Counted from the first letter of the whole stretch, positions 11,240-60,278 are shown. The stretch is 63,858 nt of DNA, filler included, from Reclinomonas americana ATCC 50394 (GCA_048213135.1; 5 parts of 4 records of this genome joined end to end with filler, not necessarily neighbours in it), one strand, 5' to 3'. Notes: a model not told the origin generated them from the sequence alone. Numbers and translations: made by a program.

Positions 11240-19593
<8,354 letters not shown>

Positions 19594-27388: not shown

Positions 27389-30300
27389 ATGCGCACTGGA
27401 GCGCTCATTGAGTCTGCCACCAGCAGCAGCACTCACCAGCATGTTCCACCACGACGCATCCGCACTCTCCTCCCGCTTCTCATCCTCATCGCAGTCGTCA
27501 CATTGACCGCCACACTCTTCATCACCATGCGCATCTCCTCCTCATCACCACCACCATTGTCCACTGCCACTTCCACACAACAGTCTGCACAGTTGGATCG
27601 CCGACGGAACCGACGTGGCGAGCAGAGTGCGTTTGATGTGCCAGCGGGTGATGACAGTGATGACATAACGGGAGAGGGGAGTGATGACAAGGAAGCAACG
27701 CCTTCTTCCGTTCCACAACAGCAGTCGTCTGTGGAGGTGAATGAGGAGGTGTATGACTTGGGCGGAGATGCGGTGATGGCACTGGTGAATCGTGCGCCGG
27801 TGTTTGCGGTGAAGGCGGGAGTGGAGAATGTGTTTGCGGTGTTGCGACACATGGCGGCGCGACGGCATCCGCTGTTTGTGCATGATCGGGTGGTGATTCG
27901 GCCGGGTCGATTGTCGTATGTGCCGAAGGAGGTGGGTGGAGGGGAAGGGGAAGCGAGGGGGGGAGGGTGGGGGGAGGGGGAAGGGGAGGGAGGGAGGAGG
28001 AGGGAAGGGGAGGAGGAGGAGGGAAAGGGGGAAGGGAGAAGGGAGGGAGGAAGAGGGAGAGAAAGAGAGAGACATCGGGCAGGGAGAAGTGTGTGAGAGA
28101 GACAATGGAAAGGGAGAAGTGAGAGTGTGTGAGAGAGAGAGAGAGACGGAAAGGGAGAAGGGGGGAGGGGAATAGAGAGGGAAGCGAGTCCAAGAGAAAA
28201 AGACACCGAAGGGAACGAGTATTCTCTGTTTTTCCCTGCTCTCTTCTCTCCCTCTCTTTCTGTCTCTCTTTTGTCTCTCATTCTGTCTCTCTTTCTGTCT
28301 CTCTTTCTTTTTCTCTTTCTTTCTCTTGTCTTCTGCAGATGCTGAGGAGATGAAGAGAGACACAGCAGATACGGGAAGGTGTGGGACAGGGGTGTCGTAA
28401 GAGAGGGGAAATCGAAGGGAAGCAACGTGTTTCCTGCCTCCTCTGTTGTTGTTGTCTCTCTCTCTCTCTCTTTCGTCTCTCTCTCTCTCACTCTTTCCGT
28501 CTCTCTTTCCGTCTCTGTTTCTGTCTCTGTTTCCGTCTCTCTGTCTGTCTCTCTTTCTGTCTCTCTTTCTTTTTCTCTNNNNNNNNNNNNNNNNNNNNAA
28601 AGCTTGAGACAGGTGTGTCGAATGGGAGGGGAAATCGAAGGGAAGCAAAGTGTTTCCGGCCTCCATTGCTGTTGTTATCTCTATCTCTCTTGGTCTCTCT
28701 TTTCCCTTCACTTCTGTGGATGCTGAGAAGATTAAGAAGACACAGCAGAGGCGGGAGGGTTTGAGACCGAGGTGTCGAAAGAGAGAGAAGGAAAGGCGAA
28801 GGTAAGTCAAGAGAGACAAAGAGGAGAAGTGTGGGAGAGACAGCGGGATTTCTGGCCAGCAGAGAGTGAGAGAGAAAGGGAGAGAGAATGAGATTTTCTC
28901 CATCTCATGCTCATATTGCCTATGTGTCTCCGTCCTTCCAAGTCCTCGCATTTCACTCCTCCTGCCACCCTCCGTCTCGTCCTCTCTCTCTCTCTCTCGC
29001 TCTCTCTCTCTCTTTGCTGCACATATTACGTTACTGAATGTGAAACCGAGTCAATGAGAAAGGCCTGTGTTTGAAGATGCAAAAAGTAGAGGAGAGAATA
29101 TGAATCGCTGATGCTGCGCAAAAAAGCGATCGACGGCTGGAGAGATGGACAGAGAAGGGAGTCTTCCACTTTCTACCTATCTTGGGGTTTCACTCTCCTC
29201 ACCCCTTCCCCCCCTCTCTCTCCCCCTTCTCCTCTCCCCTCCCGCAGATCCAGCGCGAATACTTCTGGGACAACTTTGACTTCCTCTACGAGTCCGACTC
29301 GTGGTCACCACGGCGGTGCGCGGTCACCAACTGCGCCTTCGAGTGGGACTCGCGTCTTCACCCGTCGGAGGAGAACGCCGACGCCCCACCCACCGACGCC
29401 TACATTTATCACCAGCGGCGGTGTGCGGCGCTGGTGTTTGACCATGACCTCGGTGAGGATCCGCCTTCCACCGATCTCGACAGCGTGCGGGCGCTGGATG
29501 TGGTGATGCGCAACGAGCCCGACCTCGTCACCAAGCTGGTCGACGAGACGTGCATCAAGAACGACTTTATGACGTCCGACACCGACCTATACGTCGGTTT
29601 CGATCAGCGCGCCTCGGTGCTCGCCACGCACATGTTTGACGTGGACCGGCAGCTGCGACCGGTGACCGATACGAGCACGTGGCATCGTGCCTTTGCGCGC
29701 TCCGTGTGCACGTGGACCGACCAGTGCACGGCGCGTGAGCGGGACTTTCTCACGGCGCTGAGCAAGGAAATGGATGTGCGGTCGTATGGCGACTGTGTGC
29801 CGACGGCCAAGGCGGGGAGGAGGGCGCGGGAGGAGGTGTTGCGCGAGTGTGGGTTTCTGTTGGTGTTTGAGATTGCCGAGGTGCGGGATTATGTTTCGAG
29901 GAGGTTTTTTGAGGTGAGCTCGAAGGGAAAGGGGGGAGAGGGGGAAAGGGGGGAAAGGGGGAAAGGGGGAAGGGAAAAGGGGAAAAAGGGGAAAAGGGGA
30001 AAAAGGGAAGGGAGAAAAGTTGAAGGGGAGGGGGAAAAGGAGAATGGAGAAAAGTGGAAGAGAGATAAGGGGAAGGGAGAAAAGGCAAAGGGAGAAATAT
30101 AGAAGGGAAAGGGGGGAAGGGGAAGGAAGGATAGGGGAAGGGAAGGGAGAGAATGAGAACAAAGACAAGGGATTGAAAACAGAGAGAGGAAAGAGGAAGA
30201 GAAGTCAATAGAGATGAGTTGCCATGTATCTGATTGAGGGTGAGGGAGCGAGGGTATCGTTGGAGGTGGCGCAGATTATAAAACTGAGAGGGAAGAAGGA

Positions 30301-31642
30301 AAATCGAGATGAGTGAGATAGACAGGTTGCGCTCTTTAGTTCTTCTCTTTCTCGGTATGAAGAGAACCTCGATGACGAGTATTCCTCATCGGTTGCGCAT
30401 TCTGTTTTCTCTTTTATCGTCTTGTCTTCTTTTCATCTGCTGCATGCCAAATGCTCTCCTTTCTTGCCCTGCGGAGAATCACGATGAAGTTTCTGCTTTG
30501 TCTGTATGTTGATGGACACGCCTTTCCGCATTCTCTTTTCTGCTCTCTCGCCAACTTTCTCTCTTCATCATCTATATGCCAATCGTTGCGCTCCTTTCTC
30601 TACCTCTGCTACGTCTGTATGTCGATAGCAAACCTCTTCTCTTTCTCTATTCTCTTTTCTTCCCTTCGTCCCCTCGTCCCTTTGTCAGTCGCTTTATCGT
30701 TCTTTCGCTCTCAGTCTTGCTCACCGGTCTCACTCGTCTTTCTCATCGACCCTCAGTCACCTTCTCTCAGTTCTCATTGTTGCTCAACTTCATGTCCTCT
30801 TTCTCCTCTCTCTTTTCTCTGTTCTTCTCCGTTCTACTCTGCGTTAAAGCTTTCTCTCGCTGTCTGCTCGTCGACCTCACTCTTCTTTCGTTCTCTCTCG
30901 TCATCTCAGTCACTGTCGACTTCTCTCATTCTCCATTGTTCTGTGTTCTTCTCCGTTCTCCTCTGCGTTAAACCTGTCTGTCACTGCCAGTCTTGCTCGT
31001 CGATCTCACTCTTCTTTTATTCTTTCTCGTCATCTCAGTCACTGTCGACTTCTCTCATTCTCCATTGTTCTGTGTCCTCCCTGCCATTCCCCCTCTCCTC
31101 TTCGTTTCCTTTCCATCGTTTCTCTTCTTTCCTTCTCCTCTCTTGTTCTTGGTGCTTTTCTCTCGCCTCTCATTTCCCCTTTCCCTTCTGCCCACCTGCT
31201 GACCAGCCCGCTTACATTCTTCTGTGTCCTCCTCTCGCCTCCTCTTCTTTTGTTCTCCACCCCTTCCCCTCACTCTCCCCTCTTGTAGGCGTTCGAGCAC
31301 CCCGTCATCCTCGTCTACTATGGCGCCCCCAACGTGGCCACATTCGCACCCGTTCCGTGGTCATTCATCGACGTCCGCGAGTTCCCAAGCGTCAAGGAGC
31401 TGGCGCAGCGACTGCGAGTGGTGGCCACCGACGACCGCGAGTACGAGTCGTACTTTTGGTGGCGAGCCGACGCTGTCGAGCCACCCGTGGCCTTCATCTC
31501 CGAGTCGTTTCTGCAGTTGGCCGAGCGCAGTGTGACCAACACTCCGTGCCGAATCTGCCGTGCCGTGTCTGACATGCGGGCGGCGCGCGCCATGCTGCAG
31601 CGACTCGGTGTGCTGGATCCGAGGCGTGACAGTTTTGTTTGA
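27389..31642 (+). CDS. GT10 alpha-1,3-fucosyltransferase-like type II membrane protein (degenerate donor-binding motif)
   Basis: Exons 27389-27931, 29248-29913 and 31289-31642 (phase 0, 0). N-terminal TM segment LLPLLILIAVVTLTATLFITM. GT10 C-domain: VRSYGDC...GFLLVFEIAEVRDYVSRRFFEAFEHPVILVYYGAPN...SFIDVREFPSVKELAQRL...YESYFWWR...CRIC. Confidence 0.8.
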
Positions 31643-31815: not shown

Positions 31816-31915
31816 NNNNNNNNNNNNNNNNNNNNNNNNNNNNNNNNNNNNNNNNNNNNTTAATTAATTAANNNNNNNNNNNNNNNNNNNNNNNNNNNNN
31901 NNNNNNNNNNNNNNN
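31816..31915. other. Artificial contig-joining linker
   Basis: N44-TTAATTAATTAA-N44, exactly 100 nt, with stops in all six frames. Confidence 0.97.
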
Positions 31916-34900
31916 CGTCCTTGAACTTCACGGCGTTGGTGCCAATGTCGGCCGTGTTATCCGCGGCGGCCTTCAGCAGCGTGCCCACCTGCACAAACGT
32001 CGAGACGGTGGCCGATGTGCAGCCAGTAATTGCGCCACCCGTAATCGTGCAGGTGCCATCCGACAGCGTTCCCACGTTGACCTGGCCGGCAAAGTAGGCG
32101 TCCTTGAACTTCACGGCGTTTGTCCCGACGTCAGCTGTGTTATCCGCAGCGGCTTGCAACAGCGTGCCCACTTGAACAAATGTCGAAACAGTGGCCGATG
32201 TGCATCCGGTAATGACGCCGCCCACAATGTTGCATGAGCCGTCGGTGAATCCACCAGTGGTACTCAGCTGATCGTCACCGAATGAAATAACGCCGCCGAC
32301 AGCATCAATGTCAATCGTGGGCGGCGTGGCACCGTAGTTGATGGTCAATATGTGGTTCGCGTTGGCACCGAACCGCACAGACCCTGTGCTTGACGTGATT
32401 CGCGGAATTACCGGTGCAGCAGTCAGCGTCATCGATGACGCGCCGGAGAGGACGAGTGATGTCGATGAGAGGGAACCGGTAGTCGCGAGGTTGTCGTCGC
32501 CGAATGAAATGGTGCCTGTCAACAACAAGCGTGAGTATGCAGAAATCTCACAGAGTGCGACACACTCGCTGTGTGGCTGTACGTTACCGCTTACGCGATC
32601 GAGATCCAGAGTGTATGGATTGCCGGGGATCATGCGCAGTGTCTCATCTCGGTACAGGCCCACGTAGAAGCGCGGGGTCTGCATATTGAAGTGCTGGTTC
32701 GCTGCAAACACGTACAGCACAAAGGAAGAGCGTAAGACCGTCCATCTTCTTCGCATCCGCGTGTGTGTGTGTGTGCCAGCGCGCGCTCACCATTCCAGTA
32801 CATAATGTCGGCCGTCATGTTGGAGTACGTCTGTCCGTAGAACACCAGATTGGCGCCATTGACGTCCACCAAGTCGGTGCTGCCGCTGCCGAGTCGCAGA
32901 CCACCCTCGGAATCTAGAGAGAGCAAAGTTGAGCAGCAGGATGTGGCGGGGAAAGAACTCACCACCACGCACCGACAAACACCGAATTGGCACGCGCGGT
33001 GAGGCCGGTGGTGGTGCCAATTCGGATATCGGGTGCCGCAAGCGTTGCCGCTGTCGAAAAATCGCCAGCGTACGTGCCAGCGCGCTGCGTCAATGTACCG
33101 GCCGAAGTGCCGATAATGTTGATGTTGACTCCATGCGCATTGATGGTGCTGGTCGGCGTTCCAGAGTCTCCCAATTGCAACAAGGTACTGGCGTCGATTG
33201 TGGTGCTGGTTCCACGCGCCGAGGCGATGGATGGTCGCCCGAGAGTGATGATCGGCGAGGAGAGATCGGCGCGCACCATGTAGTCGGCGCGCAACGTGCC
33301 GCTATTCTCCGTCACAGATCCAGTGGCCGGGCCCAGCAAGCTAATGTGTACGCCGTTGGCGGCAATGTCGGTGGTGGGTGTGCCCGAGTCTCCCAAAGTG
33401 ATGGTCGTAGTTGCATCCAGCGTCGCATCGTGTGCTCTCGCTGTCAAGCCTGTCGCCGTGCCAAAGGACAGCGAGTTCGACGCAATGGTCGCCGAAGTCT
33501 ACAACGATATGGTCACAGGTGTGAGTGATGAATGTGCGTGTACTCATGCGTGTGCGACAGGGACGCAACTGCAAAATCGGCGGCAAGAGTCGCGCCCGCC
33601 ATGCTCAACGTCGACAGTGTGCCAGAGCGACCGACACGGATCAGGCTCACAGCGTCTGCATCAGGGGGGAAACGTTGGTCGACATGGCCACAGAACTCGC
33701 TGAACGAATGCAAGCAACGAACCGAGAGTAATCTGGGAGCCCGTCAGCGAACCCGACGTTCCAATGTTGACAATTGGCGAACCAACTGTGGTGCTGACAG
33801 AGAACTCCATATCCAGCACGGTGCCGCTGAACGATATGGCACTAGCAGGATTGCCAATGTTCACCGTCGATGCTGCAATTGTGCCAATGCCGATGGTGCC
33901 TGCCGGTGCACCGGTACCCGCGTCAAACATCCTGCGTAGGTCAGAGGTCGTCAGCTATAACTCAGTCAGTCTCTTTCTCACTGGTTGATGATGCCAACGC
34001 AACATGTCGCCACCGTGAACCGTAGCATCCTGGCCGCGGAAAAAGGTAGTCGAGGCGTTGATTGTTGTCGAGGAGAGAGGGTCACGCTTGATGACATATG
34101 GCAGGGAGGCACCGCCACCACCATCGTTACCGAGGAGAAGAGTGTGAGTTGTTGAGCCAGCATCAAGGCCTGCCGGGAAAGAGAAACGAGCAGGCGTGAG
34201 TCAACACTGGTTCGGCGACATATCGCGCAGAGCACATGCTGCGCACCTGGATTGAGTCGCAAGTACTGCTGAACATTCATGTCCAAGTAGCCGGCTGCTC
34301 CATTTTCGGAGCGAATGAGAGTGGTGCGGACGCTGCCGCCCAAGTGAGACTCGCCACTGACATCGATGTTGAACTGGAACTGGGAAAAGCCGGCGACAGT
34401 CAACTGCAGAGCAACACGGTGAGAAGGAACGAACGAACAAACAGAGCGATGATACGAAGAAAACAATGACGCACTGCCGAGCGAATCGTCGCAGTGGCTC
34501 CGTGCGTGCCGATGCTGATATTTGTGGCAGTGGCACCGATGGACATGGGCTGCAGTATTATTTCAGCAACAGCTTCTTCAAGAACTCAAAGGCCACCGAG
34601 AGGGAAGCGCACCGCGTTCAAGGCGTCAATCATCATGGCAGAGACACTGTTCAGGGTCACCGTAGACTGCGACTGGACGGCCACTGCACCACCTGCCGCG
34701 ACATTGAACGTGGAATCAAACGAAAACGTCGTTGGCCCGCCCTCAAGAGTCAACTGGCAGCACAAAAAATTGAGTACAAATGAGCTCATGCATCACGAAA
34801 GAGACACACAAAAATCACCTGTCCGCGTGCACCGGCAACGCCTGTGGAAATCACAATGTCACCATAGAGGGGCGACGCCGTGGTGGCACCGTGAATGGCA

Positions 34901-37900
34901 GACTCAATTCGGAGAGCAGGTGCCGCGGTGGCTGTGGACAGCTCTGACGCATGCCGAACGGTGATGGTCCGAGCCGGTGAGCCGATCTTGATAATGTGAT
35001 TGGCGGAAGCCACGGATGAGGTGCTGCTGAGCTGCATGATTGAATCGACATTGAACAGCGAAGCGGTCAGCGAGACCGTGGCGGCTGCGTGGCCAATGGT
35101 AACGGCCTTGGTCGGTGAGCGTCCGAGTATGACGCTGCCCATGTTGCTGCCGGGTCCATTGCCGCCCACCAGCACCACGTCGCCACCAGTGGCCAATGTT
35201 GTTGACTGGCCGGCGAACACCAGTTCGTAGGTGGTGCCCACCACGTTTTCACGAGACACGGTAAGCGCCAAGGTCGGCTGTCCTGCAAGAACGAGCATGG
35301 TGTTGCCAGTCTGTAGTGTCAAATTCTGACCACTGGCAGAGCGCACAGTGGGCACCACAACCGCCGTCGACACCGTCACATCCTGCAGGGCTGCAAGCTG
35401 TGGTCGACAATCACAGCGTGTGAGCAGTGATATCGAGGCAAATGCATCACAGCGGAGGAAACAGCACGCAACTGTGCCTTGCACAGTGGTTGGCTTGCCG
35501 GTCGCACCAATCGTGATGCCTGTCAACGACGAGTCGACCGTGCCAATCGCAATGGTGGTGGCATCGAGAGAAAGCGAGTTTCCGTTCACGGTGACAACTC
35601 CGCCCTGAATGGCAATCTGTAGCAGCCCCGCATCAGCAAACATCCCGACAACCACCACCGCCGCCTACTACCACCTACCGTGTTGGTGCTCCGAGTTGTC
35701 GTGCCCAAGTACAGCGCGCTGTTCGTGCCAAGCCCGGGCGCAATCAGCAGACTCATGGCAGCACTGTTGTCATCGTGTGAGCATATGTCACGTCGTGCGG
35801 ACGTGAAAACAGAAACTGTTTTCACCTGCCGAGTCGATCGGGAGTCTGCATGGTCAACAGTGGAGAGACTGCGCCAGTGCATGTCGAGCACGACAGCACA
35901 AACACATTGCCGGAGCTAAAGAGCGTGGACGAAAGAGTGACGGTGCTGGAAAATGTCGCCGCTCCGGTGACCTGCAGGCGTTTCGCATCTCATGAGCACC
36001 ACCGCCACCAGCGATGCCGACGTGAGACATGCAAACGCACCGCCAGAGTCGACTGCGCGGCCAATGCTCCGCTGATCCGCGTGTTCGGCGACGACAAGAT
36101 TGTCGACGTGGATGCCGTTCCACGACCCACCACCACCTTGTGACACACAGAGAGTGTGTGAGATCGTGGACAGCGCGTTAGACCACGATCGGATGACACA
36201 CACACACACACCGTCGTGCCCGCTAGTGTACCAAGCAGAATATCTCCATCGGCACCCATTGGTCCGCCAGCAGTGGATCCGGCATCAATGTAGCTGATCG
36301 CTCTTGTCAGTCGCACAGCACAAGGGCGAAGCACGCGATCGTGAATAATAGAAACGCAACATGGAGCCGCCGACAGTGTTCGACTGTGTGGTGTTTTGTC
36401 CGCGCAGACTCGTCACGTCACCATCCCCGACAGCTTGGTCAGGGCGACGAATGCGTACTGCAGTGCCACTGGACGCGAGCAACGAAATCTGTGGGGCGCA
36501 GTCTGCGTCAGACTGACAGCTCACGCAGGAAGCACATGCAGCGACAACCCCGACGAACAATGCCAGTGGATGACTGTAGCGAGAGATCCGTGGCCGCTTG
36601 CGAAGAGACCTGATTGGCAGTGAGCTGACTCACGGAGAGCGTCCCCGCCAGTGAAAGCGATCCCGAAAATGTCACATTCTCGGCCACCACCAGCTGCGCC
36701 AATCGCGTGGTCAGCTTCGCACAAATGTGGTGCACGATGAAAACACGCTTGTCGCACCGATCCGAGCACACGCGTCACACGACCCGAAGATCCGAGCTGC
36801 ACCTCTAGTGCCGCATTGGATCCGCCCGTCACAATCACAATGTTGGAGTTTTGCGAAGACAGGCGCAGTTGGTCGCGCCCATTCACCTGCACACTGATGC
36901 CTTGCAGCACCACCTGTAACCAAGCGATAAGTGCACGCACAACTGTCTGCGTATGAGGGGACGCGCAACTTGATTGGTGCGGAATGAGGCGGCGCCGAGT
37001 GTCAAATTGCCATCCGCTGCGCCCGACGAGCTCTGTCCAGCCTCCACCCGCAAGTCGAGCCCCACGCCATTGATTGCCGGTCGTGTGAGCGTGAACCATG
37101 AAGCAGAGGTAGTGCTGCCTAGCTGGAGAGCGTCGATTGATGGCACCAAGAGGCGGCCGTTGAGAAGACTCAGGGAGTTCCCAATCGATGCCGTGCCGCT
37201 CACGGTAAGCGACGCCGCGGAGAGCGCTCCCGACATGGTGACAGTCGCCGATTGAATCGAGGTGGCACCCGCGGCGTTGCCAATCTGCACGTCGCCTCGC
37301 ACGGAACCCACATACACGGCACCGGGGGCAGACGAGCCTGGACCAGGGTCCAACGCTCTGCCATGCGCCAACAAATTGTCAGTAGATGACACCAAGTGGC
37401 ACAGAATAGACGGAAAACTCACACATCGCCACCGACACCACCGGTCGCCTGCTGGCCTATGATGCTGATCCGAGTTGCAGTTGCCGCAGCTGCGCGACTA
37501 ATGACACTGCCAAAGCCAATTGGACCCAGAACAATGCGACCCGTTGTCGGTTGCAGCGTCAGGTCGGTGCTGGCAGCAGTGGCAATCGACGGAGTCTGCA
37601 CACCGCCACTGGCCACCAGGAGACTGCTCATTGACACTGCGCCGTTGAGGGTGACGGTGGCAGAAAATGTGGCCGCTTGGGAGAAGGTGGTGGCGGCATT
37701 GAACGTCGACTGTCACAGGCGATTCAGAAGAGCGCAGTCGACATCACAGGAAGGAATTACTCTCCGGACAACGTACCACGCCAGCCACGGTAATCGCGTT
37801 GCTCGCACTACCCAGCGTTACGGAGCCGGCAAGAGACGTTCCCACGAGCAGAGACGTACCAGCGCTAATGGTCACTGTGCTGCCGAGAAGGGTCGTCTGC

Positions 37901-40900
37901 GAGAGCGCACACGGATGTGAGAATTGCTCGCTCCGTGAATGCCATCATCATACGAGAAATTCTCACCGTCGTGGACGACGCACTGCCCAGCGCAACACCA
38001 CCGCTGTTCTGGCCGACGCCATCGACACCGCCCACGACAGTCACGCTACCGCCAGACTGCCCCGAGCCGCCGACAATGGTCACCGAGCCACCCACGGATC
38101 CTGCGCCACTCACAGTTGCACCCTGCAACCACAACGTGCCAGCAGGGCCGGAGGCGGTGGTTGGGCTGGTGCGCTGCACGACAAATTGAGTGGCATCGCT
38201 TGCGCCCAGCCACACTGTCGGTGGTGCGCTTCCCGATGTGGCTTGCGCGAGAACACGAGTTGCTGCCGAAAGTAGCAGATTTCCGCCATTGATCTGCAGC
38301 ACTGGCGAGTTCACCAGTACGCCACCAGAACTCGTGGCCTTGCCAAGCACGACTTGCGACGCAGTTACCGTGCCGAGTTTCACGGCGCCCTCCTGCGACG
38401 CTGTGGCTCCCGTTCCGCCATCGACATAGCTGTGTTGACAAGCACCGCGTCAGTCGACTGCTTGCGCAACCCAGAGAGGAATCGCTCTCACGCAACATGT
38501 CTCCGCCTGACAGTCCCGTAGCACCCTGCTGACCAACGTACATTGTGTCTCGGCCGGCGAGCGACGAGTGCGGTGGACGAGCAATGGTGAGAGGGGCGTC
38601 GTCGCCCAGCCGCAAGATGCCACTCGTCGGCACCAGCGCGAGGTCTCTCGGTGTGCCACTCGCCGAACGCAGCAGATTGCTCACCAACACGTTGCCGGAG
38701 ACCGTGAGCGCCGTGCCCACCGACAGCTGCACTCATTGCTGTCAGACACACGCTATAGATTGACAGAGAAAAAGAATGGCTGCTTACCGTTCCGGGAACG
38801 CTGACCGCCGACGAGGATGCTCCAAGCGTCACCGCGGGCGACGATACCACCATCGATTGTACTCCGCTCACCGTCACCAATTGCGCACCGATACGAACCT
38901 GCAAAGAGACACAGATCGAGTCAGACAGTACTGGCGGCAGCGTGCGATTCCAACACTTTTGATACCTCCGTCGAGACGTCAGTATCGGCACCAAGCAGCA
39001 GTCGCCCATTTGCGCCACCACCGCTTCCCAGTGCGGGTGTGATTCGCAGATCGCCCCCCACCAGTGCTCCACTGCCAGTTGGTGCTGAACGTGACAGCAC
39101 AAACTCGGCGCTCCCCACACCACCCAGCGACAGCGTGCCACCATCGTTCTGGCCGACAGTCACCCGGCCGCCGACAGCCACATCCAACGAACCAGCAAGC
39201 CGCGTGGCGGCGGCTGACACGAGCAGCGTTGACGCGGCCTTGCCAATGACCGTGGTGTCGGCGGCTGTGGTTCCCAGGTACAACGTGCCGGCCGACCCGG
39301 CACCCTTGCCAGCATCCACGTACCTGTGGGGGCAGATACACCAAGTCACACAACAAGACAGTGGACGCACAGGAAGGGAATCGGTGCTCCACTGCCACCA
39401 CGCACATTGAACCACCCTGCTGGCCCACGCTCTGCACGTCTTGTCCGACCAGGTACGTGTCGAGACCGCTGGCACTCGCAGCCGCTGTTGGTCGCGATAT
39501 GCGGAATGCTCCCGAGGTGGATGCCGTGCCGAGTCGAACACGGGCACTGGCCGCGTCGAGAATAATGTCGCCAGTCGCGGCACTTGTCAGCGTACTCGTG
39601 AGAGTGCCGTCGAACGAAAGCGCGCCACGCAGGGTGGCACTGTTGGCCACCGTAAGCTGCCAGTGCGCATTTACCGTGAGTCAGCAGATGGTGATGCGCG
39701 GAGGAGTGCACACAAGAGGGTACCACTCACCGGCGACACGACAGTGACCGTGGAACCCGAACGACCCACAGTGACTGGGCCAGAAGTCGCTGCGGTTGCA
39801 ATGGTAACGCTCGTCGTACCATCCAGCGCAATCGTGGCGCCCTCGGCTTGCACCTGTGGTGGGGGGGACGCGAATCAATTGAGAGAGTGCATTGACGGTG
39901 ACGAGACGCGAGCGCACAGTAACAAACCAACTGAGTGGTGGACGAGCCGAGCCAGAGAGTTGCGCTTGTGGCGAACGCACCAGTGCCACTGGACGGCGCA
40001 ACGCGCAAGTGTGCGCCAATTACATCCATTGCCACGGGCGTCGGGCGAGTGAGCACAAACACCGAGGCAGCCGTGTTGTCGCCGAGCAGCAATGAATTGG
40101 CCGTCGTCGACGCCACAGCCGTCGAGCCGACAATGAGCCGCGTGTTGACCTACAGCAGTTGCGTGAGAGTCAAGTCTGTGGCGCGCTACTTGTTTCCAGC
40201 ATCACGCACCGTGAGGTCACTTTGCGATGTCAGGCCTGCAGAGGCCACCGTGGGCACAGCAAGTAGCACAGTGCGCGTGTGCTCGGTGCCGATTTTCACA
40301 TCGCCGTGCACCGTGCCGCCGGCGCCAGCATTTAGCAGTCTGCGCGTTGTTTAGTGTACGATCAACTCGACAGAGGTGCAGACGACATGTGTTAGCGACG
40401 CACAGTGGACCGCCACTGCCGGCTCCGGTGGTGCTTTGACCCGAAACTCTGGTAATGGACCCGTTGACGCTGTCGGTGCGCGCGGGTCGGCTGATCTCAA
40501 AGTCGGCAAGAGCGCCCACACGCAGCAACTGCGTCTGTGACGCGCGCAAATCCAGCGCAGGCGAGCCCGACAGTTGGTCAATGGCCGACATGGAGAGCGA
40601 CTGCGCCACTTGCAGCTGCGACACACACAGACAGCAGAAGCAGGGGCGTTTAGTGAGAATTGTGTGGAGTAAACAACAACAACAGAAGCAGGAGTAGCGT
40701 ACCGATCCGACAATGGAGACACTCTGTCCGGAGCTGCCAACAATAACAGTTGGAGCGGTTGCGCCGATGAGCAGTGTGCCTGCCGAATCCAGCACCGTCT
40801 GCACACGCGACGTGACGGAAACCTGCGCGCGACGCTCCCACTGTGTGAACGACGCAAATATGATAGAATTGTACGACTGTTGACACGCACTTGCGAGGTC

Positions 40901-43415
40901 CCGGAGGTGGAACCGATGGAGATGTTGCCGGGTGAACCCCCACCTGCTCCCGCGCCGCCTGCAAGCACCAGATCGACACCGACGGCAGACGCACTACCAC
41001 TTCGCGCGGGACGCGAGAGGACAAATTGTGACTGCGCCTCGGTGCCGAATTCCAGGCGACTGCCGCTATTGACAATGCTGCTGTTCGTCAGGGTGCTGAT
41101 TGTGGCACCTGCCGTAAATGATGCGGGCGCAGAGAATGTCGCAGGTGATGCCACCGTCACCGATCCGCTGGACACACCGAGCACAATCTAGGGCGACAAT
41201 CCGTGTTCGACAGAGTGAGTAAAACAGCATGAAATACGGTGACAGCAACGACAAAGGTTGCAACACACCTGCCCGGCATTGACAGTGGCCAGTCGCACGA
41301 TTCCAGCGCCAGCAGGACCGGTACCTCCATCCAGAAGCCTGCGAGGAATAACAAGTCAGGAACTCCCCCTCCAATACAGAGAGAAGATAGCGAGACGTAA
41401 CAGATCGCCACCGGCGCCGGCATTCGCCGTCTGACCCGCAACGCTGAGAGCAGAGGCGGAGGATTGGCCGTTGACGGGTGCGCCAAGTGTGATAGTGGCA
41501 CCGCCTCCACTGCCGAGCACCAAGCGTGCCGAGCTGGGGAGCAGAGTCAAGTCGACACCGGCAGCAGAGGAGATTTGCGACACGGTGAGGGCGTCATCAA
41601 TCTGTGACGCGGTCAGCGTGAGAATGCAAAGGAATGTGTAGACAAGCACATGGGCGCGCACCGTGGTGGCCTTGGTCAGTCGGATTCGGCTGCCACTCGT
41701 GGTGACGGTGAGTTCCCCGGTACTTGCACTCACAGACATGCTGGCGTTGAAGGACACGGCAACCAGATTGAGGCGAGCACTCGCCGATGGATTGGCAGTT
41801 TGCGCTGTCAGCACAGCGTCGCCACTGCTCGACTGCACCGAGACACCGCCGGCAAAATTAACGGCACTCTCGAAACTGAATGTACCCGACGCCGGAATGG
41901 AGAAGATGCGGTTGCGAGTGGGACCGAGGAAGGTGAGCGCGCTGGCGTCGGCCACGATGCTGTAGAACTGCGACATGTCGGCACGAATACCAATCTGCAT
42001 CTGGCCAGCAACCGCTCCATCGCCGGTTCCAGCAGGACGAATCTGTCGTGCAGATGAGTGGAACTATGACAAAAGTTGACAAGAGGTGAGAAAGAGCAAG
42101 TGCACACACCTGGAACAACCGTGTGCGTGCTTGCACAACACCCGAGAGTGTTGGGCTGTCGCTCGCTCCCGCTTCGATGTAAATGCTGCCGCCTGAGGCA
42201 CCCGTCACAGAGCCTGCCAGAAGAACACATGGTTTAGCGCGGTGTTCGACGGACGACAATCCGGCCTGCACACTCATTCACTCACCAGCCCCGCCCTGAA
42301 GACGCGTGTCGCCACCCGGGGAGCCGGCGCCGGCGGTGAGCACAAGTGAACCGCCAGCTGATGCCGCCGCTCCCTGTGCTGCCGCTGTGAGAATCGTGTC
42401 GAAAATAGAAGTCAAGCATCTCACAGTCACGAACCCGCGAATCCTGGCCAGAGAGAGTGGTGGTTCCGCCTACGCCGCGCAGCGTTTGCACTCGTGTAAG
42501 TGACAGAGGCACGCCCGGAGTGTCATCCAGCAGCTCCACGGTGGACGTCATGAAGCGCATGCTGGTCGTGGTGGTGATGGTCGACGTGCTATTGGTGCTG
42601 CCAGAGTTCGTTTGCAGCAACCTGCGCATGTGCACGCTGCATGTCAGCAATCGCGTCTGATCACGCAAAAAAATAAGGGAGCGACACGAAGAGTCGACGC
42701 ACGAGCGGCCAGTTTTTCCATCCACCATCGGCAGCGACTGTGTGGTCATCGTCTGCTGCGGCAAAAACGCCAGCAGCGTCTGTTGTCCGCGGGTCAGAGT
42801 GAAGCTCTGCAGACCGGTGCTGGCCAACCGGAACGACGTGGAGTCATCGTCGGCTACACCCGAGGATGTGGACGATACAAAGACCACTGAGGAACTGGTT
42901 GGCGATCGAATGGTGATTGTGGACGGTGACGAAGGCGATTCGACACTTATTACTGGTGCCGAAATGACCTGCGTGGCCTGCAGAGTGGCGGCCGTGGCCG
43001 AGCCTGTGGGGCGTAAGGAGAGCGAGTGAGGAGACACGGGGGAGAGAAGAGAAGAGAATGGGAGTCACAAACCCGCCACCGACAGACTGGAGATGCGAAC
43101 ATCCGGTCGCGCCAGCAAGAAAAGCACGATTCCCAGCATTGCCCAGAACAGTACCACGTGCACCACAAATACAGTGACCACGACAGCATCCTGCCGTGGT
43201 CTAGCACGCACACCGCACTGATAGAGGGCGCGGCGCCACCAGGCGGCCTTGGGGCTCTTGGGCGCACTCTGCAACTCCAGCGGCGACGACGGCTGTGCAT
43301 CTCCAAACGGCGCCGACCTCGGCCACGCCGCCCACGTGTCGAGGTGCGACGGCGGCGACATGGGCACCTGATACATGGCCGACTGCGGCGGCGCTGGCCC
43401 ACCCAACGGCACCAT
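31916..43415 (-). CDS. Giant type II membrane protein with fibre/adhesin-like Gly/Ser/Thr beta-repeats (about 41 exons, about 2,900 aa estimated; 3' truncated, 5' possibly truncated)
   Basis: A chain of exons separated by about 40 GT-AG introns of 50-90 nt; the junctions I checked keep frame. Pro-rich N-terminus, one TM segment (AVVVTVFVVHVVLFWAMLGIVLFLLA, about 43110-43190), then repeats of RP...GQ...GGDl.lDAG.G...G.V.IG, and a C-terminal 60-aa tandem repeat. Confidence 0.8.
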
Positions 43416-43416
43416 A

Positions 43417-43516
43417 NNNNNNNNNNNNNNNNNNNNNNNNNNNNNNNNNNNNNNNNNNNNTTAATTAATTAANNNNNNNNNNNNNNNNNNNNNNNNNNNN
43501 NNNNNNNNNNNNNNNN
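43417..43516. other. Artificial contig-joining linker
   Basis: N44-TTAATTAATTAA-N44. Confidence 0.97.
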
Positions 43517-44452: not shown

Positions 44453-46173
44453 TCAGTCCGCATCTGGAATCGGCTGCATGGTGGCCCATTCGCGAAGAAG
44501 TGTGTCGCTCGGGACCACCAGGAACAGGCAACTTTCGGGATCAATGTCGAGGCTGTCGACGGCGTCGGTGCGTACTTGGGCTTCGACCTCGCCTGCGAAT
44601 GTGCATGTCAGAATGAAGCGACGCGACTCTTCTCGCTCTCCTTGCGCAAAACACGCACCTTCTTGCAAGTACAGAATCAACAGACGGCGACCGCTGAACT
44701 CGCAGCTCAGTCGCGACTCCTGAACAAGCCGATCGCGGACCGAGCCGAGGTACTGCCGCCGGATAAAGTAGAAGAATTCCTTGTCGAACTCCAGCCGCCC
44801 GTCGCCGTCGCGGTCTACACACAGTGTTGCATATGTGTGTATGCATGCAGATGGGTGCAAAAGGGAAAGGGCGACTGCACGCACCTGCCAAGTAGAAATC
44901 GAGCAGGATGTTGCGCTCCGACACGGCTCCCGACGAGCCGTGCACTGTGTCGAGCAGGTGAGCGCGACTTGTCGAGGTGCACGAATCATCGACACACGGA
45001 CGCAACTCTTGTGATGTAGCCGCGCCAAAAACTCCTTGCTCTCCTCGAACGTGAGCCATCCATCGCCATTGACCTGTCATGACGAGCGTCACGTTACAGC
45101 GACACGCAGGCACAGAGACGGGCAAAGGCGCAACATCTGCTTCCTGGAACTCGGCTCGTTTGCGCTCCCAGAACGCCTGCCGTGCACGCATACAAGTCAG
45201 CAAACGCGCAGGCATGAGCCATGTATCACAGAGAAGGAAGGACCTTGGATCGCAGCTGATCGCGCGCCTGTTCCATCGTCACTGGAGCGCCTGCCGATAT
45301 CGGGGTCATCGGTACCTCCTCGGACTGCGACGGGTGGATCACTGCGACGGCACGAGTGAGTGGCGAGCACGCACGCGGGCAAAGAGGGGAGAGGAGCAGC
45401 GCGCGCGCGCAACTGTTCCACATCTCATCCAGCGACTGATCGTCGGTCTTCTTCGCCGTCGCAATGTCCATGAGCGTGTCGCGAGCCAGCAGCCACTGGA
45501 ACAGTTGCACACTCTGTGACCGCACAGCTCAGACAACGATCGCGTGGAAGAGACAGAGTGAGCAGAGAGACCTCGCCAATCTCCAGCTCGCCGTTGCCAT
45601 TCGAGTCCAACATGTGCACCAGCTTGCGCGTCTGTTCCTCGTCCGGAGGCGGACCACGGTTGTGTGCTGGAGAGTGCATTGTGAGCGACAGAGAGAGGCA
45701 CAGAGAGAGAGAGTGACGGAGAAACCGCCATTCACCTTCCCAGAATGCGGAGAGAATGGCGTGGACTTTCATTGGTGACAGTGTGCCTGTGCCGTCCACG
45801 TCAGCGTCCTCGAACAACTGTCACACAGAGAGAAAGAGAGGGTGAGTGAATACACACATTGGCATTGCATGACGTGCACACTTGCCTGCACGACAAAGCC
45901 AAAGAACGAGTCGCATGTGAGGTACTCGCGCAGAGTGCGGCCAATGAGCGGGTGTGCGAACACGCTCTTGCACTGTGTGTGTGGAGTGAGCACAGTGCAA
46001 TGTGAGAGTGAGAGAGTGAGTGAGAGAGAGACCTCAGCGGGCAGTTCCATTTTGTGCTCCCAGGGTGCTCGGAAGCGATAACACACGCGCAGTGACTCAG
46101 CCTTGCGATGACGTACGCGGCGTGGTGAGCGCGGGTTGCTTCCAGATCGGCTGCGTGCTGCGGCGGCTGACAT
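44453..46173 (-). CDS. EF-hand calcium-binding protein (4 EF-hand loops)
   Basis: The spliced model gives loops DVDGTGTLSPMK, DSNGNGELEIGE, DVNGDGWLTFEE and DRDGDGRLEFDKE; the last two form only across predicted introns. The exon structure near the 3' end is uncertain. Confidence 0.75.
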
Positions 46174-49364: not shown

Positions 49365-51210
49365 TTATTTCAGCTTGCCACCCGGAAGGCCACCCGACTG
49401 CTCCGCGAGCGCGTCGTGCTTGGCCTTGGCGTCGTACTGCGGCGCGAGGCGGCCGTACTGCACAATGACGTCCTCCGGCTTGAGGTCGCGCTTCTCGAAC
49501 GTGCGGGTGAGGATGTCACGCACGCCGTCCGAGTAGCGGCGCTGGGCGTCGAGGGTGGTGCCAGAGTAGTGCGGCGTCAGGGCGTGGTTCGGGGCATTGC
49601 GCCACGGGTGGTCAGCCGGAGCCGGCTGCGGCCACCACACATCACCAGCGTAGCCGGCCAGGTGGCCGGACTGAGAATGCCAGAGTGCGTCAGCGCGCAG
49701 AGCAAGTGAGAACACATGAAACACTCACAACACCGACCTTCAGAGCCTCCACCAGGGCGTCGCGCTCCACAATCTTGCCACGGGCAGTGTTGACGAGGTA
49801 CGAGCCGCGCTTCATCTTGCCGATCAGAGTGCGGTTGAACAGGTGCTCAGTGGCGTCGTGCAGCGGGCAGTTGATGGTCACCACATCGCAACTGTATTAA
49901 TGGTGAGCGCACAATCGACAATATCTTGACACAGCGACGCACGCGACGCAACGTCGACACGAGCTCATCCAGGCTGACGTAGCGGGCGCCGAGTTGCTTC
50001 TCCGTCTGTGCATCCAGACGGGCGTAGTCGGAGTACAGCAGCTCCTTGCAGTCGAACGGCTTCAGGCGCTCCAGCACACGGCGGCCAATGCGACCGGCAC
50101 CGACGGTGCCGACCACCTTGCCCTCCAGATCATAAGCGCACGGGTACACACCGACAATCGACGCCACGTGCCACTGGCCAGAGACGATCTGCTTGTAGGC
50201 GGGGATGTAGTTGCGGACGAGAGCGAGAATCTGCATGACGACGTGCTCGGCCACCGAGACGACATTGCAGCCGGTGACCTCGGCCACTGCACAACCGTCA
50301 GGCTCGTGCATGCATGTACAACACACACACGCGTGCACACATACGCGTACCGGTGATGCCGTACTCGCGGCAAGCGTGCAGGTCGACGTGATCCGACCCA
50401 ATGCCTGCCGTGATCGACATCTTCAGCTTTGGCGACGCCTCAATGCGTGCCCGGGTAATGTACGCCGGGTGGAAGGGAGTCGAGATGACGACATCCGCGT
50501 CCTTCAGCTCCTTGTCGAACTCAGAGTTGGCGCGGTCCTTGTCGGAGACCACCACAAAGCTAACCCGCCGCAGCAAGTCAGCAGCGATCGACGCAACGCA
50601 GAGAATGACACGACGACGTACCGGTGGCCACGGCTCTCCAGGAACTCACGGATGCCGAGCGCATTTTCGCGGCAACCCAGCAGGCGCGGGTTCTTGGCGG
50701 CCTCAGCGCCGGCCTCGTAGAAGCTGTGCGCCAATGAGCAGTGAGCGTCATAATGCGGAGATGATGGGCAGAGAGAGGGGCTCACCAGCCGACAATCTTT
50801 AGCGGCTGTCCCGACGACAGCGCCGCCAGATCGCGGTGCTTCGACGAGAAGTTGCGCACAGAGCTGTGCCGAGAGAGTGAGTGAGTGTTTGCCATGCGCG
50901 TGTGTTCATTTCCACCGACCGCGCTCACGTGACCCCACGCGCTTGTGCATGAGCGCTCACCGTCACTCCCTGTATGCCACTCGTGTGCTCATGCTCTCTG
51001 TAATGTGTGTGCAGCGTGGCGATGCGTGCATGCATCTGCGTGCCGAGATTCTCGTGTGACATGCGGAGAAAATCACTTGTCTCGGCATTCTTCGTGTTGC
51101 GCACAATGTGTTTCTCTCTCCCTTCCGTTCTCTTTTCTGTGCAAGAGATACTCTGCGTGTGCAACAGAGAAGAAGGCCGAGACAACTCACCGGCTCAGTC
51201 GCGCCAACAT
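49365..51210 (-). CDS. FDH: NAD-dependent formate dehydrogenase, predicted mitochondrial
   Basis: [95 protein letters not shown]. The spliced N-terminus MLARLSRSVRNFSS resembles a mitochondrial presequence. Confidence 0.95.
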
Positions 51211-55317: not shown

Positions 55318-55417
55318 NNNNNNNNNNNNNNNNNNNNNNNNNNNNNNNNNNNNNNNNNNNNTTAATTAATTAANNNNNNNNNNNNNNNNNNNNNNNNNNN
55401 NNNNNNNNNNNNNNNNN
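55318..55417. other. Artificial contig-joining linker
   Basis: N44-TTAATTAATTAA-N44. Confidence 0.97.
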
Positions 55418-58409: not shown

Positions 58410-59478
58410 TCATCTTGGTGGCGTCGCGTGCGCCACAAACAGCGACAACACTTGTTCTACGGCGGTCCAGGTGAGAGCGGCGGCGGCCGAGCGTTTGAGC
58501 ATGCGCGGCACGAGGCCAGCAAAGAGGCCGGCGAGCATGCCGCGATCGCGAATCAATTGCTGCGCGCAGTCCCAGTACAGCTGCGGGGTGACGCGCGTAC
58601 CCAGCAGCTGCACGCGCGTGCGTAATGCATCAAACGGCTGCGTGACACACGAGGCCACGGCACCCGACGCAAAGCCCGCGACAGTCGGCGCCAATCGCCG
58701 TCGCCATCTATCGCCTCCTTCCACCGCGTTCGTCGTTCGATGATTGTGAGTGCTGGCGAGCGCCAGTGACGAGTAGCTGCCGCCGCTCAAGTGCCGCAAC
58801 AGCACCGAGTACGATGCCAGCGTGATGGCCGAGTACGGAGCATCGCGCAACTGTGTTGTCAGTGAGAGACGCACGCGGCAAGGAGTGAAGCGCGCAGTGA
58901 CGCAACGACCGTCGGCACCAAGCCAGCGACCATTCCCCGCCACCCGCGCTCTCTCAGCACCTGTCGCGCCACCTCACGCATGCTGGAACCCTCGGTGCCT
59001 CGTCGCGACTCGTTCTCCAGTCGCGTTTTGATGACGATCAGCGGCATTGTCAGCGCCGCCGCAATCGTGCGACTGGCAAAGCCCGTGACAGCAGTGACGC
59101 TCACCGGCAGTGGCGACGAAGGCGCAATCGACAGAAGCGATCGAGAGGCGTCGGAGAACACGCGCACACTGCCAAAGTAGAGACCAGATCCGGGCACAAT
59201 CCGCAGCAACGTCGGCACAGTGCCTCGCCTGACGCACACACAGAGTCAGTTGACGTTATGTACACCAACACAGTGCGTGCTTACCAGAGAGCACGGGTGC
59301 CGCCTTCCCTGTACACCGCCTTGGCCACGTCCCACAGACGCACTCGCTGCTGCTGTTGTGCAGGCGAGGTATTGTGCGCGGCAATTACGCGTGTCTTGAG
59401 CACGTCGAAGGGCTGCAGAAGCACGCTGGTCACAGTGGCGGCGGCGGAGCCCGAGAGCACCTGCTGCACGAGCGTCAT
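58410..59478 (-). CDS. SLC25A38: Mitochondrial carrier, SLC25A38/Hem25 (glycine transporter)-like
   Basis: Three exons and three carrier signatures (QPFDVLKTR, MPLIVIKTR, QPFDALRTR). RIVPGSGLYF, LRDAPYS and PRMLKRS fit the SLC25A38 subfamily. Confidence 0.8.
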
Positions 59479-59541
59479 TGCAAAGAAAAGTCCCACACGA
59501 CGCTGTTGTCCCACGACAACTTGATTGAGCTTCTTGTTGAA

Positions 59542-60178
59542 ATGGACGACGACGACGTGCATGTGGAGTTGGCTGATCTGCAGTACTATGAGGTGCGTGC
59601 GACTGCGCGCAGTGAGCTCACCTCGTTGTGCGCACGCGCGCGCGAGGTGGTGCATGCCATGTCGCTCACTCTCACTCCCTCTCTCTCTTGTTGCGCAGCG
59701 TGCTGTGACACACGGAGCAGCTGCTGCTGACTCGGACGACGAGGGCAGTGTGGATGGACGCGCGCCTGTGTCGAGCGCGGGTCCGTCGACCCCAGTTCGG
59801 TCCTCTTCGCAGCCTGGTCACGTGACCTCGCCCATCCTGGCGCACCCGACCACGCCCTCTCGTCGTGGTGGTGCGCCGCAGCAGCCGGGCTCTCCCATGT
59901 CGCCTGGGGGCGGCGCAGGCATGGACATGTCGCATGTCGTGCCCACCTCGGCACTGGAGATTGCCGTGGATCGCTTCCTGCGCTCACTGCAGGAGGCCAT
60001 TGCACGGGGAGACACGCATGAGTGTGCGTTGTTGTACGAGCATGAGTTCCAGATGCTGACGGAGAAGCATTTTGCGTCGACCGAGTGGCCGCACCCCGAT
60101 TGCGCCCTGGTGCGCTCGATTGCGCGTGACGATGCCATTTTTGAGATGTGCTATCAGATCCTCTACTACCGCCATCTC
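59542..60178 (+). CDS. EIF3L: Eukaryotic translation initiation factor 3 subunit L (3' truncated)
   Basis: LLYEHEFQMLTEKHFASTEWP...DDAIFEMCYQILYYRHL matches the eIF3L pattern YE..W.KLTERFF...WP...D.VF..LY.ELYYRH. One intron after MDDDDVHVELADLQYYE. Confidence 0.8.
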
Positions 60179-60278
60179 NNNNNNNNNNNNNNNNNNNNNN
60201 NNNNNNNNNNNNNNNNNNNNNNTTAATTAATTAANNNNNNNNNNNNNNNNNNNNNNNNNNNNNNNNNNNNNNNNNNNN
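60179..60278. other. Artificial contig-joining linker
   Basis: N44-TTAATTAATTAA-N44. Confidence 0.97.

Follow-up and report, generated by a model that had tools for sequence, protein, structure and literature searches.

We describe a giant, intron-rich gene of Reclinomonas americana ATCC 50394 (GCA_048213135.1), which occupies positions 31916-43415 on the minus strand of the window, the 63,858-nt stretch of DNA that was analysed. The gene encodes at least 2,911 amino acids, arranged as a proline-rich head, one transmembrane-type helix and a very long repetitive ectodomain. We hold it to be rather probable that one gene here encodes a type II membrane protein of very large size, which belongs to a rare, unnamed and vertically inherited family of microbial eukaryotes and most likely serves as a surface fibre or adhesin. 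The last exon present on the scaffold, by contrast with the rest of the gene, resembles the tail fibres of marine phages.

On the minus strand of the scaffold, stop-to-stop open reading frames (ORFs) follow one another like the rungs of a ladder, and all are rich in Ser, Thr, Gly and Ala. A gene on the plus strand was ruled out, as antisense ORFs there are only short. The gene was modelled with a splice-aware dynamic-programming exon chainer, run on the minus strand and trained iteratively on the same sequence. It combined weight matrices for donors and acceptors with codon log-odds and a prior on length, and allowed GT..AG introns of 35-400 nt. The raw output contained 40 introns. The first of these (118 nt, inside the head) was discarded, the frame from the ATG being open there, which left 40 exons and 2,938 amino acids without a stop. 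Two corrections were made by hand after comparison with the homologue P0014, described below: one intron of 60 nt, hidden because it is in frame and stop-free, was inserted, and another, an atypical one of 40 nt, gave way to an intron of 61 nt whose donor, GTTCGT, is typical.

The final model (31916-43415) comprises 41 exons, 40 introns of 43-95 nt (median 68.5 nt) and 2,911 codons with no stop. Splice statistics were taken from the version of the model with 39 introns, every one of which was GT..AG, with a donor that was mostly GT[G/T]NGT and a C at acceptor position -3 in 33 cases; reading through would have stopped or shifted the frame at 34 of the 39. In the same version, GC content at third codon positions (GC3) was 0.67, and overall GC was 0.53 in introns vs 0.61 in coding sequence. 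The frame is still open at the 3' end of the scaffold, and the true length of the protein is consequently at least 2,911 amino acids. At the other end the gene reaches the 5' scaffold edge, where one base precedes the ATG at 43415. No N occurs within the scaffold itself (31916-43416), which is flanked by runs of N at 31872-31915 and 43417-43460 and whose GC content is 0.57-0.62 throughout. The original prediction, made from the sequence alone, had read the scaffold as one spliced gene of about 40 introns and about 2,900 amino acids, open at the scaffold end, and the final model agrees closely with that reading.

Relatives of the protein were sought with a profile of five repeat-bearing exons, searched with HMMER against 1.84 billion representative proteins. 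Thirteen proteins were returned, 12 of which are repeat-bearing relatives; the 13th, a 1,710-aa Bacteroidota-type protein without BLAST similarity to the giant-gene model, was rejected as spurious. All 12 relatives are fragments of 76-514 amino acids from environmental assemblies. They are 24-52% identical to the giant protein, a spread which indicates that several related organisms exist. Their ends consist of hydrophobic, Cys/Phe-rich junk, as would result from a prokaryote-style gene caller running into introns, and the fragments are thus best understood as pieces of intron-bearing eukaryotic genes. Consistent with this, several fragments begin where the xDAG exon begins, or lose similarity past '..G-T/G-V'; the giant gene has recurrent introns at these sites.

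The most informative relative was P0014, an environmental protein from an ENA assembly that is a cluster mate of one of the hits and runs uninterrupted for 2,608 amino acids on a contig of 8,135 nt. The spliced model is colinear with P0014 (blastp E value 1.4e-71, 28.5% identity over 1,931 columns); without composition adjustment, the alignment extends from inside the helix to residue ~2,300, at 28% identity over 2,388 columns. Both proteins share the same order of elements, namely a head of low complexity, a single helix whose conserved core is H..LFW and an ectodomain rich in Ser, Thr, Gly and Ala, and both carry a repeat of ~115 amino acids that is found by one profile in 14 copies in P0014 and in 13 (15 with marginal copies) in the giant protein. 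They differ at the two ends. The head of P0014 is ~340 amino acids long and its array ends in a short Cys-containing tail, whereas the giant protein goes on for at least 600 residues, through a 74-aa repeat and an aromatic-rich segment to the phage-like exon. The unbroken ORF of P0014, with its matching layout, speaks against a scaffold made up of several separate genes, in line with what had been predicted.

Comparison with P0014 also bears on the splicing. Three environmental sequences, P0002, P0015 and P0016, match stretches of P0014 with full identity but are non-homologous to it at their ends, a pattern suggesting that they are genomic pieces of the P0014 gene and that P0014 itself is the spliced message; if so, the homologue would be expressed as one ORF. 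The four informative boundaries that these pieces define in P0014 (541/542, 841/842, 965/966 and 1442/1443) all fall on introns of the giant gene. It should be noted that the boundaries were mapped by eye through the P0014 alignment, and that three of the four fitted the first model, the fourth only after the model was revised. Introns at common positions in proteins that are 28% identical indicate that the gene is an old eukaryotic one, passed on vertically, and sequence comparison accordingly places the stalk of ~115-aa repeats in an old, unnamed eukaryotic family with vertical inheritance.

No named family was found to accommodate these proteins. Pfam cut-offs were not reached by any of the 16 longest exons, by P0014, by P0001 (one of the environmental relatives) or by any of the 22 members of the relatives' alignment A3, and for P0014 there was neither a Pfam family nor a PDB sequence relative at an E value of 1 or below. 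Searches of PHROGs with 12 of the longest exons yielded nothing above threshold, NCBIfam gave no match for two of the longest exons, and the repeat profile drew a single chance-level row (E value 1.2) from the PDB. Word-indexed protein searches found nothing outside the query's own cluster, and JGI metagenome pattern scans with P0014 and a 213-aa exon found no relative. In the protein Atlas, a repeat exon lay near Chlorophyta-labelled hypothetical clusters (score 0.95), which we treat as a lead only. Among the papers listed by literature searches, none was pertinent to a eukaryotic tail-fibre-like membrane giant.

The repeat array occupies 33442-41727 on the minus strand, where an iterated hidden Markov model (HMM) recognized 13 copies at E values of 1e-7 or below and two marginal ones. 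Its repetitive character is equally evident in a self-BLAST in chunks, which gave 155 off-diagonal high-scoring segment pairs at an E value of 0.01 or below. The original prediction had singled out a recurring RP..GQ..GGD/DAG module. We found this module, GQ....GGD / xYVDAG.G....G.v.lG, seven times in the giant protein, and it proved to be part of the ~115-aa repeat, namely the junction of two successive units. No sub-repeat inside the unit was found by hhalign self-comparison.

Introns within the array recur at the same position and phase of the unit: inside scored copies, position 104 in phase 2 is used three times, position 36 in phase 0 three times and position 21 in phase 0 twice, and inspection by eye placed the position 104 phase 2 intron at all seven module sites. 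This recurrence indicates that the array grew by duplication of DNA that already bore introns, and hence in a eukaryotic genome. Copies that share intron positions are mixed in the array with copies that lack them, which makes it usable as a record of intron history for the study of repeat expansion and of intron gain and loss. The environmental relatives offer related observations. In P0001 the coding sequence continues without a break across the GGx / YVDAG junction, at which the giant gene has its recurrent phase-2 intron, and P0006 runs into junk within a stretch that is one exon in the giant gene (for both, compare 37967-38429 and 39324-39405). The P0014 family may therefore be useful in its own right for following the gain and loss of introns in repeats.

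The layout of the protein was derived from the translation; all coordinates in this and the following paragraph are on the minus strand. Residues 1-76 (43188-43415) form a Pro-rich, basic head that ends in a cluster of Arg and Lys directly before the helix, from which the positive-inside rule would place the head on the cytoplasmic side of the membrane. The head may be incomplete, given the ~340 amino acids that stand ahead of the helix in P0014. Residues 77-102 (43110-43187) form the single transmembrane-type helix, identified by hydropathy and aligned with the helix of P0014; Kyte-Doolittle values in a 19-residue window exceed 1.8 in one stretch only, around residue 82, and the same holds at the matching place in P0014. 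The basic residues ahead of the helix, together with the lack of a signal peptide in P0014, suggest a type II topology with the N-terminus inside and the C-terminus outside.

Beyond the helix lies a membrane-proximal ectodomain (residues ~103-446; 41728-43109), a Ser/Thr-rich region with a Gly-rich stretch, loosely repeat-like, that is interrupted by five introns and aligns with residues ~372-745 of P0014. The array of ~115-aa repeats follows, and after it an exon with a second type of repeat (32973-33498), the period of which is ~74 amino acids (internal BLAST without composition adjustment: 38% identity over 102 columns at an offset of 74, E value 3.6e-22). Two short exons (32588-32913) then encode an aromatic-rich, non-repetitive segment; the introns that join them score lowest in the model. 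The last exon present (residues ~2712-2911; 31916-32515) carries tail-fibre-like repeats, as judged from motif and phage comparisons. By composition the ectodomain is 13.3% Ser, 13.2% Thr, 13.0% Gly, 12.2% Ala, 9.5% Leu and 9.0% Val; Ser, Thr, Gly and Ala make up 52% of it, and Cys, Lys and Trp are almost absent. Autocorrelation of hydrophobicity showed a weak signal at lag 2 (0.07 and 0.12). Translation, hydropathy and composition thus all bear out the Pro-rich head, the one transmembrane helix and the G/S/T/A/V-rich ectodomain that had been proposed.

We propose that the Pro-rich head stays in the cytoplasm and that the one helix anchors the protein, so that ~2,800 residues of Ser/Thr/Gly/Ala-rich, beta-prone sequence would project from the cell. 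The ~115-aa repeat array, which grew by duplication in an intron-bearing genome, would form a long, stiff stalk or fibre. Such a stalk, extended and probably oligomeric, could hold the C-terminal module tens of nanometres off the membrane. The outermost module on the scaffold would then consist of repeats like the shafts of marine phage fibres and spikes, with the true tip encoded beyond the scaffold end, and the fibre may bind a target outside the cell, be it a substrate, other cells, prey bacteria or virions. A binding role for the C-terminal module is suggested by analogy with phage fibres. A membrane-anchored, elongated surface protein, as originally predicted, is the natural reading of a type II layout with a repetitive beta-prone ectodomain, and a function in adhesion would be consistent with it.

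Very long, low-complexity, beta-prone tandem repeats are a feature of bacterial beta-helical adhesins, trimeric autotransporters and eukaryotic mucin-like giants. The likeness of the giant protein to giant surface adhesins in general is one of plan, in that the repeats project a distal module from a membrane anchor. It differs from them in that no Pfam, NCBIfam or PHROG family of these kinds was matched, and in having an N-terminal type II helix of eukaryotic kind and 40 spliceosomal introns. Beta-helix and beta-solenoid adhesin models in particular gave no curated match in Pfam for the 16 longest exons, P0014, P0001 or the members of A3, and none in NCBIfam for two of the longest exons.

The same composition would also suit a protein that is not a binding fibre at all, and instead is a bulk component of a cell covering (wall, scale, theca or glycocalyx) that is anchored or later shed. 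The extreme richness in Ser, Thr, Gly and Ala, the near absence of Cys, Lys and Trp, the long and monotonous repeats and the conservation of the family in several environmental eukaryotes would all be at home in such a component. Against this, a single N-terminal anchor combined with a distinct distal module fits a projecting, tipped fibre. Sequons for N-glycosylation are also few for ectodomains so rich in Ser and Thr, with 12 in 2,833 amino acids of the giant protein and 3 in 2,236 amino acids of P0014; this scarcity may reflect selection against N-glycans. Neither point is decisive, and we regard the cell-covering role as unlikely, though deserving of serious consideration.

The original prediction had further supposed that the gene was possibly domesticated from a virus or bacterium and then filled with introns. 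For the stalk, our searches argued against such an origin. Among the 1.84 billion representatives, no relative from a virus or bacterium was recovered with the repeat profile; the search that had been recommended at the outset, of viral and other proteomes, returned a family that is eukaryotic and vertically inherited, though unnamed. Pattern scans of IMG/VR with P0014 and with a 196-aa exon found nothing. The repeat HMM scored 9.3 bits on phage fibre ORFs vs 5.6 bits on shuffled sequence, which we judged no better than the shuffled controls, and hhalign gave a probability of 0.06 for the repeat profile against a phage fibre. The intron positions that are common to a relative of 28% identity, and to the copies of the repeat, likewise imply a long eukaryotic history.

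An origin of the whole gene by domestication of a phage, giant-virus or bacterial fibre or adhesin, with later invasion by introns, draws on three observations: the resemblance of the last exon to phage tail fibres, faint leads towards DUF2345 (the gp5/VgrG triple-stranded beta-helix; Atlas score 0.79, and a Pfam E value of 3.2 at 8 bits), and a match between residues 1873-2068 of P0014 and a viral fibre locus (L055:3274-3810; 30% identity over 214 columns). The E value of this match, 0.003, refers to 80 loci only, and the match, which is the only hint tying the stalk itself to phage fibres, appears too weak to use. Set against the empty searches and the shared introns, these observations lead us to give domestication of the whole gene very little credence. 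What survives of the original idea concerns the last exon alone, which does resemble the tail fibres of marine phages.

The last exon encodes two tandem copies of a unit of ~60-70 amino acids, the second of which is cut by the scaffold end. The unit is marked by the motifs I-S-F-G-D-D and D-N-T-x-D-[VI]-G-T-x-x-x-K-F-K-D-x-Y. When the exon was searched by tblastn against 50,697 phage records, no match was found at an E value of 0.01 or below; at E values up to 10, three records from two phages were matched, each within a gene annotated as a tail fibre and each by the same part of the exon. Pairwise alignments with the phage fibres extend over up to residues 2-175 of the exon, and the two elements that they share, I-[SN]-F-G-D-D followed by D-N-T-x-D-[LIV]-G-[TA]-x(4)-[FW]-K-D-x-Y-x-x-G, keep the same order. 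The protein Atlas placed the exon near Uroviricota clusters (0.92), again as a lead only.

When a mixed alignment served as the pattern for a scan of IMG/VR, more than 613 stretches were found, 183 of which were confirmed by tblastn against the exon copy. The best loci, when rescored locally, reached 51.2 and 49.7 bits, which rough arithmetic on an assumed collection size would make borderline against the whole of IMG/VR. Two viral ORFs that were examined, of at least 978 and at least 1,354 amino acids, matched PHROG tail spike (phrog_4636) and virion structural families at 1e-86 and 3e-27. To lower selection bias, a profile was also built from seven phage fibre segments that had been picked by a phage query, and not for their likeness to the giant protein. 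The same place in the exon scored highest with this profile, at 10.9 bits, against a maximum of 9.4 among 500 block shuffles. Within the giant gene, the matches to viral loci and the motif pair were confined to the last exon.

The phage proteins concerned are fibres and spikes of marine phages, among them the 'fiber' of Prochlorococcus phage P-HM1, the putative tail fiber of Roseobacter phage CRP-603 and the ORFs at viral loci L056 and L083. They share with the last exon tandem shaft units of ~60-70 amino acids that carry the pair F-G-D-D and D-N-T-x-D-[LIV]-G-[TSA]-x(4)-[FW]-K-D-x-Y, at 29-43% identity over 55-190 residues, and in both the module lies toward the C-terminal, distal end. They differ in that the giant protein matches by its last exon only, without the phage N-terminal attachment domain, and in that the giant gene is spliced, GC-rich and membrane-anchored. 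The ORFs of L056 and L083 have in addition tail-spike parts, recognized by PHROGs, that lie C-terminal to the common repeats and have no counterpart on the scaffold. We also observed that these two ORFs (L083:2149-6210 and L056:1408-4341, both on the plus strand) have identical N-terminal stretches of ~60 amino acids and a conserved structural gene upstream, and that each contains several D-x-x-x-D-L-G..F-K-D-x-Y units followed by long repeats rich in N-T-[AT]-[VI]-G. They look like a widespread type of marine phage fibre.

Two structures in the PDB were reached by the mixed profile A4, three of whose five rows are phage: 6EU4 (E value 1.4e-6), which is the depolymerase gp42 of Acinetobacter phage AS12 (PMC11058221), and 8I4M (E value 4e-5), the fibre gp28 of cyanophage P-SCSP1u. 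Both carry D-N-T-x-D-L-G..[FW]-[RK]-[DN]-x-Y near their C-terminal parts, but they were reached by the mixed profile only and never by exon-only queries. In the part of the source that was available, only the N-terminus of gp28 is described as clearly resolved (PMC10575957), so that on this evidence no structural role can be read for the D-N-T-x-D-L-G element.

Several results weigh against our reading of the protein, and they concern its fold, its gene model and its last exon. AlphaFold2 modelling of P0001 as a monomer (283 amino acids, a full repeat pair without introns, 22-row alignment) gave a mean predicted local distance difference test score (pLDDT) of 70.9, with ~80-86 at residues 80-230. 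Residues 80-230 of this model contain no strand or helix assigned by DSSP, and the repeat part found no match by Foldseek (PDB and BFVD) and none by VIA-align (48,161 chains); structure-search matches of P0001 were limited to its helical read-through tail. A chain without internal hydrogen-bonded structure could represent one strand of an intertwined oligomer. For the last exon, single-sequence AlphaFold gave a pLDDT of 41, too poor for searching.

As for the gene model, the splice sites are predictions, most so those of the last three introns. The two introns that link the last exon to the rest have the lowest scores in the model (donor/acceptor 3.1/3.7 and 4.1/7.0), and the second of them (4.1/7.0) is in frame and stop-free; the last exon could therefore be a separate gene, or be joined in some other way. 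The 5' end may also be incomplete, in which case an upstream signal peptide or further helices would be conceivable, although P0014 has none. The statistics of the last exon are equally modest: its tblastn matches among the phage records have E values of 0.6 and 5, the tblastn E values from IMG/VR are relative to the candidate stretches only, PHROGs gave sub-threshold matches to families of unknown function (best E value 0.0019, none at 1e-3), and the PDB returned nothing for the last exon alone or for the two-copy exon profile A5.

These points lend some force to a different explanation of the phage likeness, namely that it does not reflect common descent with the gene body and is due instead to chance or convergence among Gly/Thr/Asp-rich beta repeats, to a neighbouring gene, to misassembly or to contamination. 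Besides the borderline E values at the level of the collection, the empty exon-only PDB searches and the low-scoring linking introns, this explanation can point to the independent phage profile, which exceeded the best shuffle by only 1.5 bits, and to P0014, which ends without such a module. It is harder to reconcile with two separate motifs that occur in the same order across ~170 residues, or with the 183 viral stretches, of which all those annotated or tested are tail fibre or spike genes. The GC content of the last exon (0.58) and its GC3 (0.69) are moreover those of the gene's other exons and unlike those of the viral loci (median GC 0.40 in the 80 kept), which makes recent contamination or a misjoin unlikely. 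The scaffold is free of gaps, and the reading frame of the last exon continues upstream without a stop across the previous exon. We judge the non-descent explanation improbable on these grounds, without dismissing it; the sequence evidence as a whole tips towards true kinship between the last exon and the shafts of phage fibres.

Returning to the surface fibre that we favour, the kinship of the last exon suggests a more elaborate possibility. The protein might be a stalk of more than 3,000 amino acids in the plasma membrane of a free-living protist, built of a eukaryote-specific repeat and tipped by a phage-derived tail-fibre module, with which the cell seizes bacteria, either prey or symbionts, or which acts as a decoy; equipment for host recognition would then have been co-opted from phages across domains. 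The module would be a long-standing resident, as its GC content is that of the host and it is spliced into a 41-exon gene. We regard this version as distinctly doubtful. A peptidase S74 chaperone was not matched by Pfam in the last exon at an E value of 1 or below, its expected site lying beyond the scaffold end.

The window does not represent one locus: short scaffolds have been strung together in it, and it contains many internal assembly gaps. Between the scaffolds stand spacers (31816-31915, 43417-43516, 55318-55417 and 60179-60278), each made up of 12 bases with 44 N on either side, and genes that stand beside the giant gene in the window are therefore not its genomic neighbours. Within the window, no paralogue of the giant gene was matched outside its own scaffold. 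On the preceding scaffold, two ORF pieces at 29104-31642 (plus strand) match the C-terminal domain of glycosyltransferase family 10 (fucosyltransferase) at E values of 2.5e-7 and 4.9e-15, and this region looks like a spliced fucosyltransferase gene. Exon-sized domain matches on the other scaffolds, at 49850-50422, 58413-59817 and 45428-45820 (all minus) and at 62395-62838 (plus), were to the NAD-binding domain of D-2-hydroxyacid dehydrogenases, mitochondrial carrier repeats, EF-hands and SPRY; the dehydrogenase match, judged by eye, resembles formate dehydrogenase. By their domains, the genes in question are ordinary eukaryotic ones. Intergenic or intronic DNA at 1-600, 4758-5369, 11515-14009, 17160-19393 and 30376-31300 is rich in (CT)n, (CA)n and similar microsatellites, which yield long, spurious, low-complexity ORFs in several frames.

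The giant gene and its relatives represent a conserved family of giant surface proteins of microbial eukaryotes that lacks a name, a Pfam model, a solved relative and a confidently predicted fold. The family is exceedingly rare in public data, with 12 fragmentary clusters among 1.84 billion representatives. At present its value is that of a well-delimited lead, for which a function at the cell surface is the likely reading. If the last exon does descend from phage tail fibres, the gene would represent an unusual eukaryotic fusion of phage receptor-binding architecture to a membrane stalk of the eukaryote's own, and such a fusion would bear on how protists recognize bacteria or viruses.

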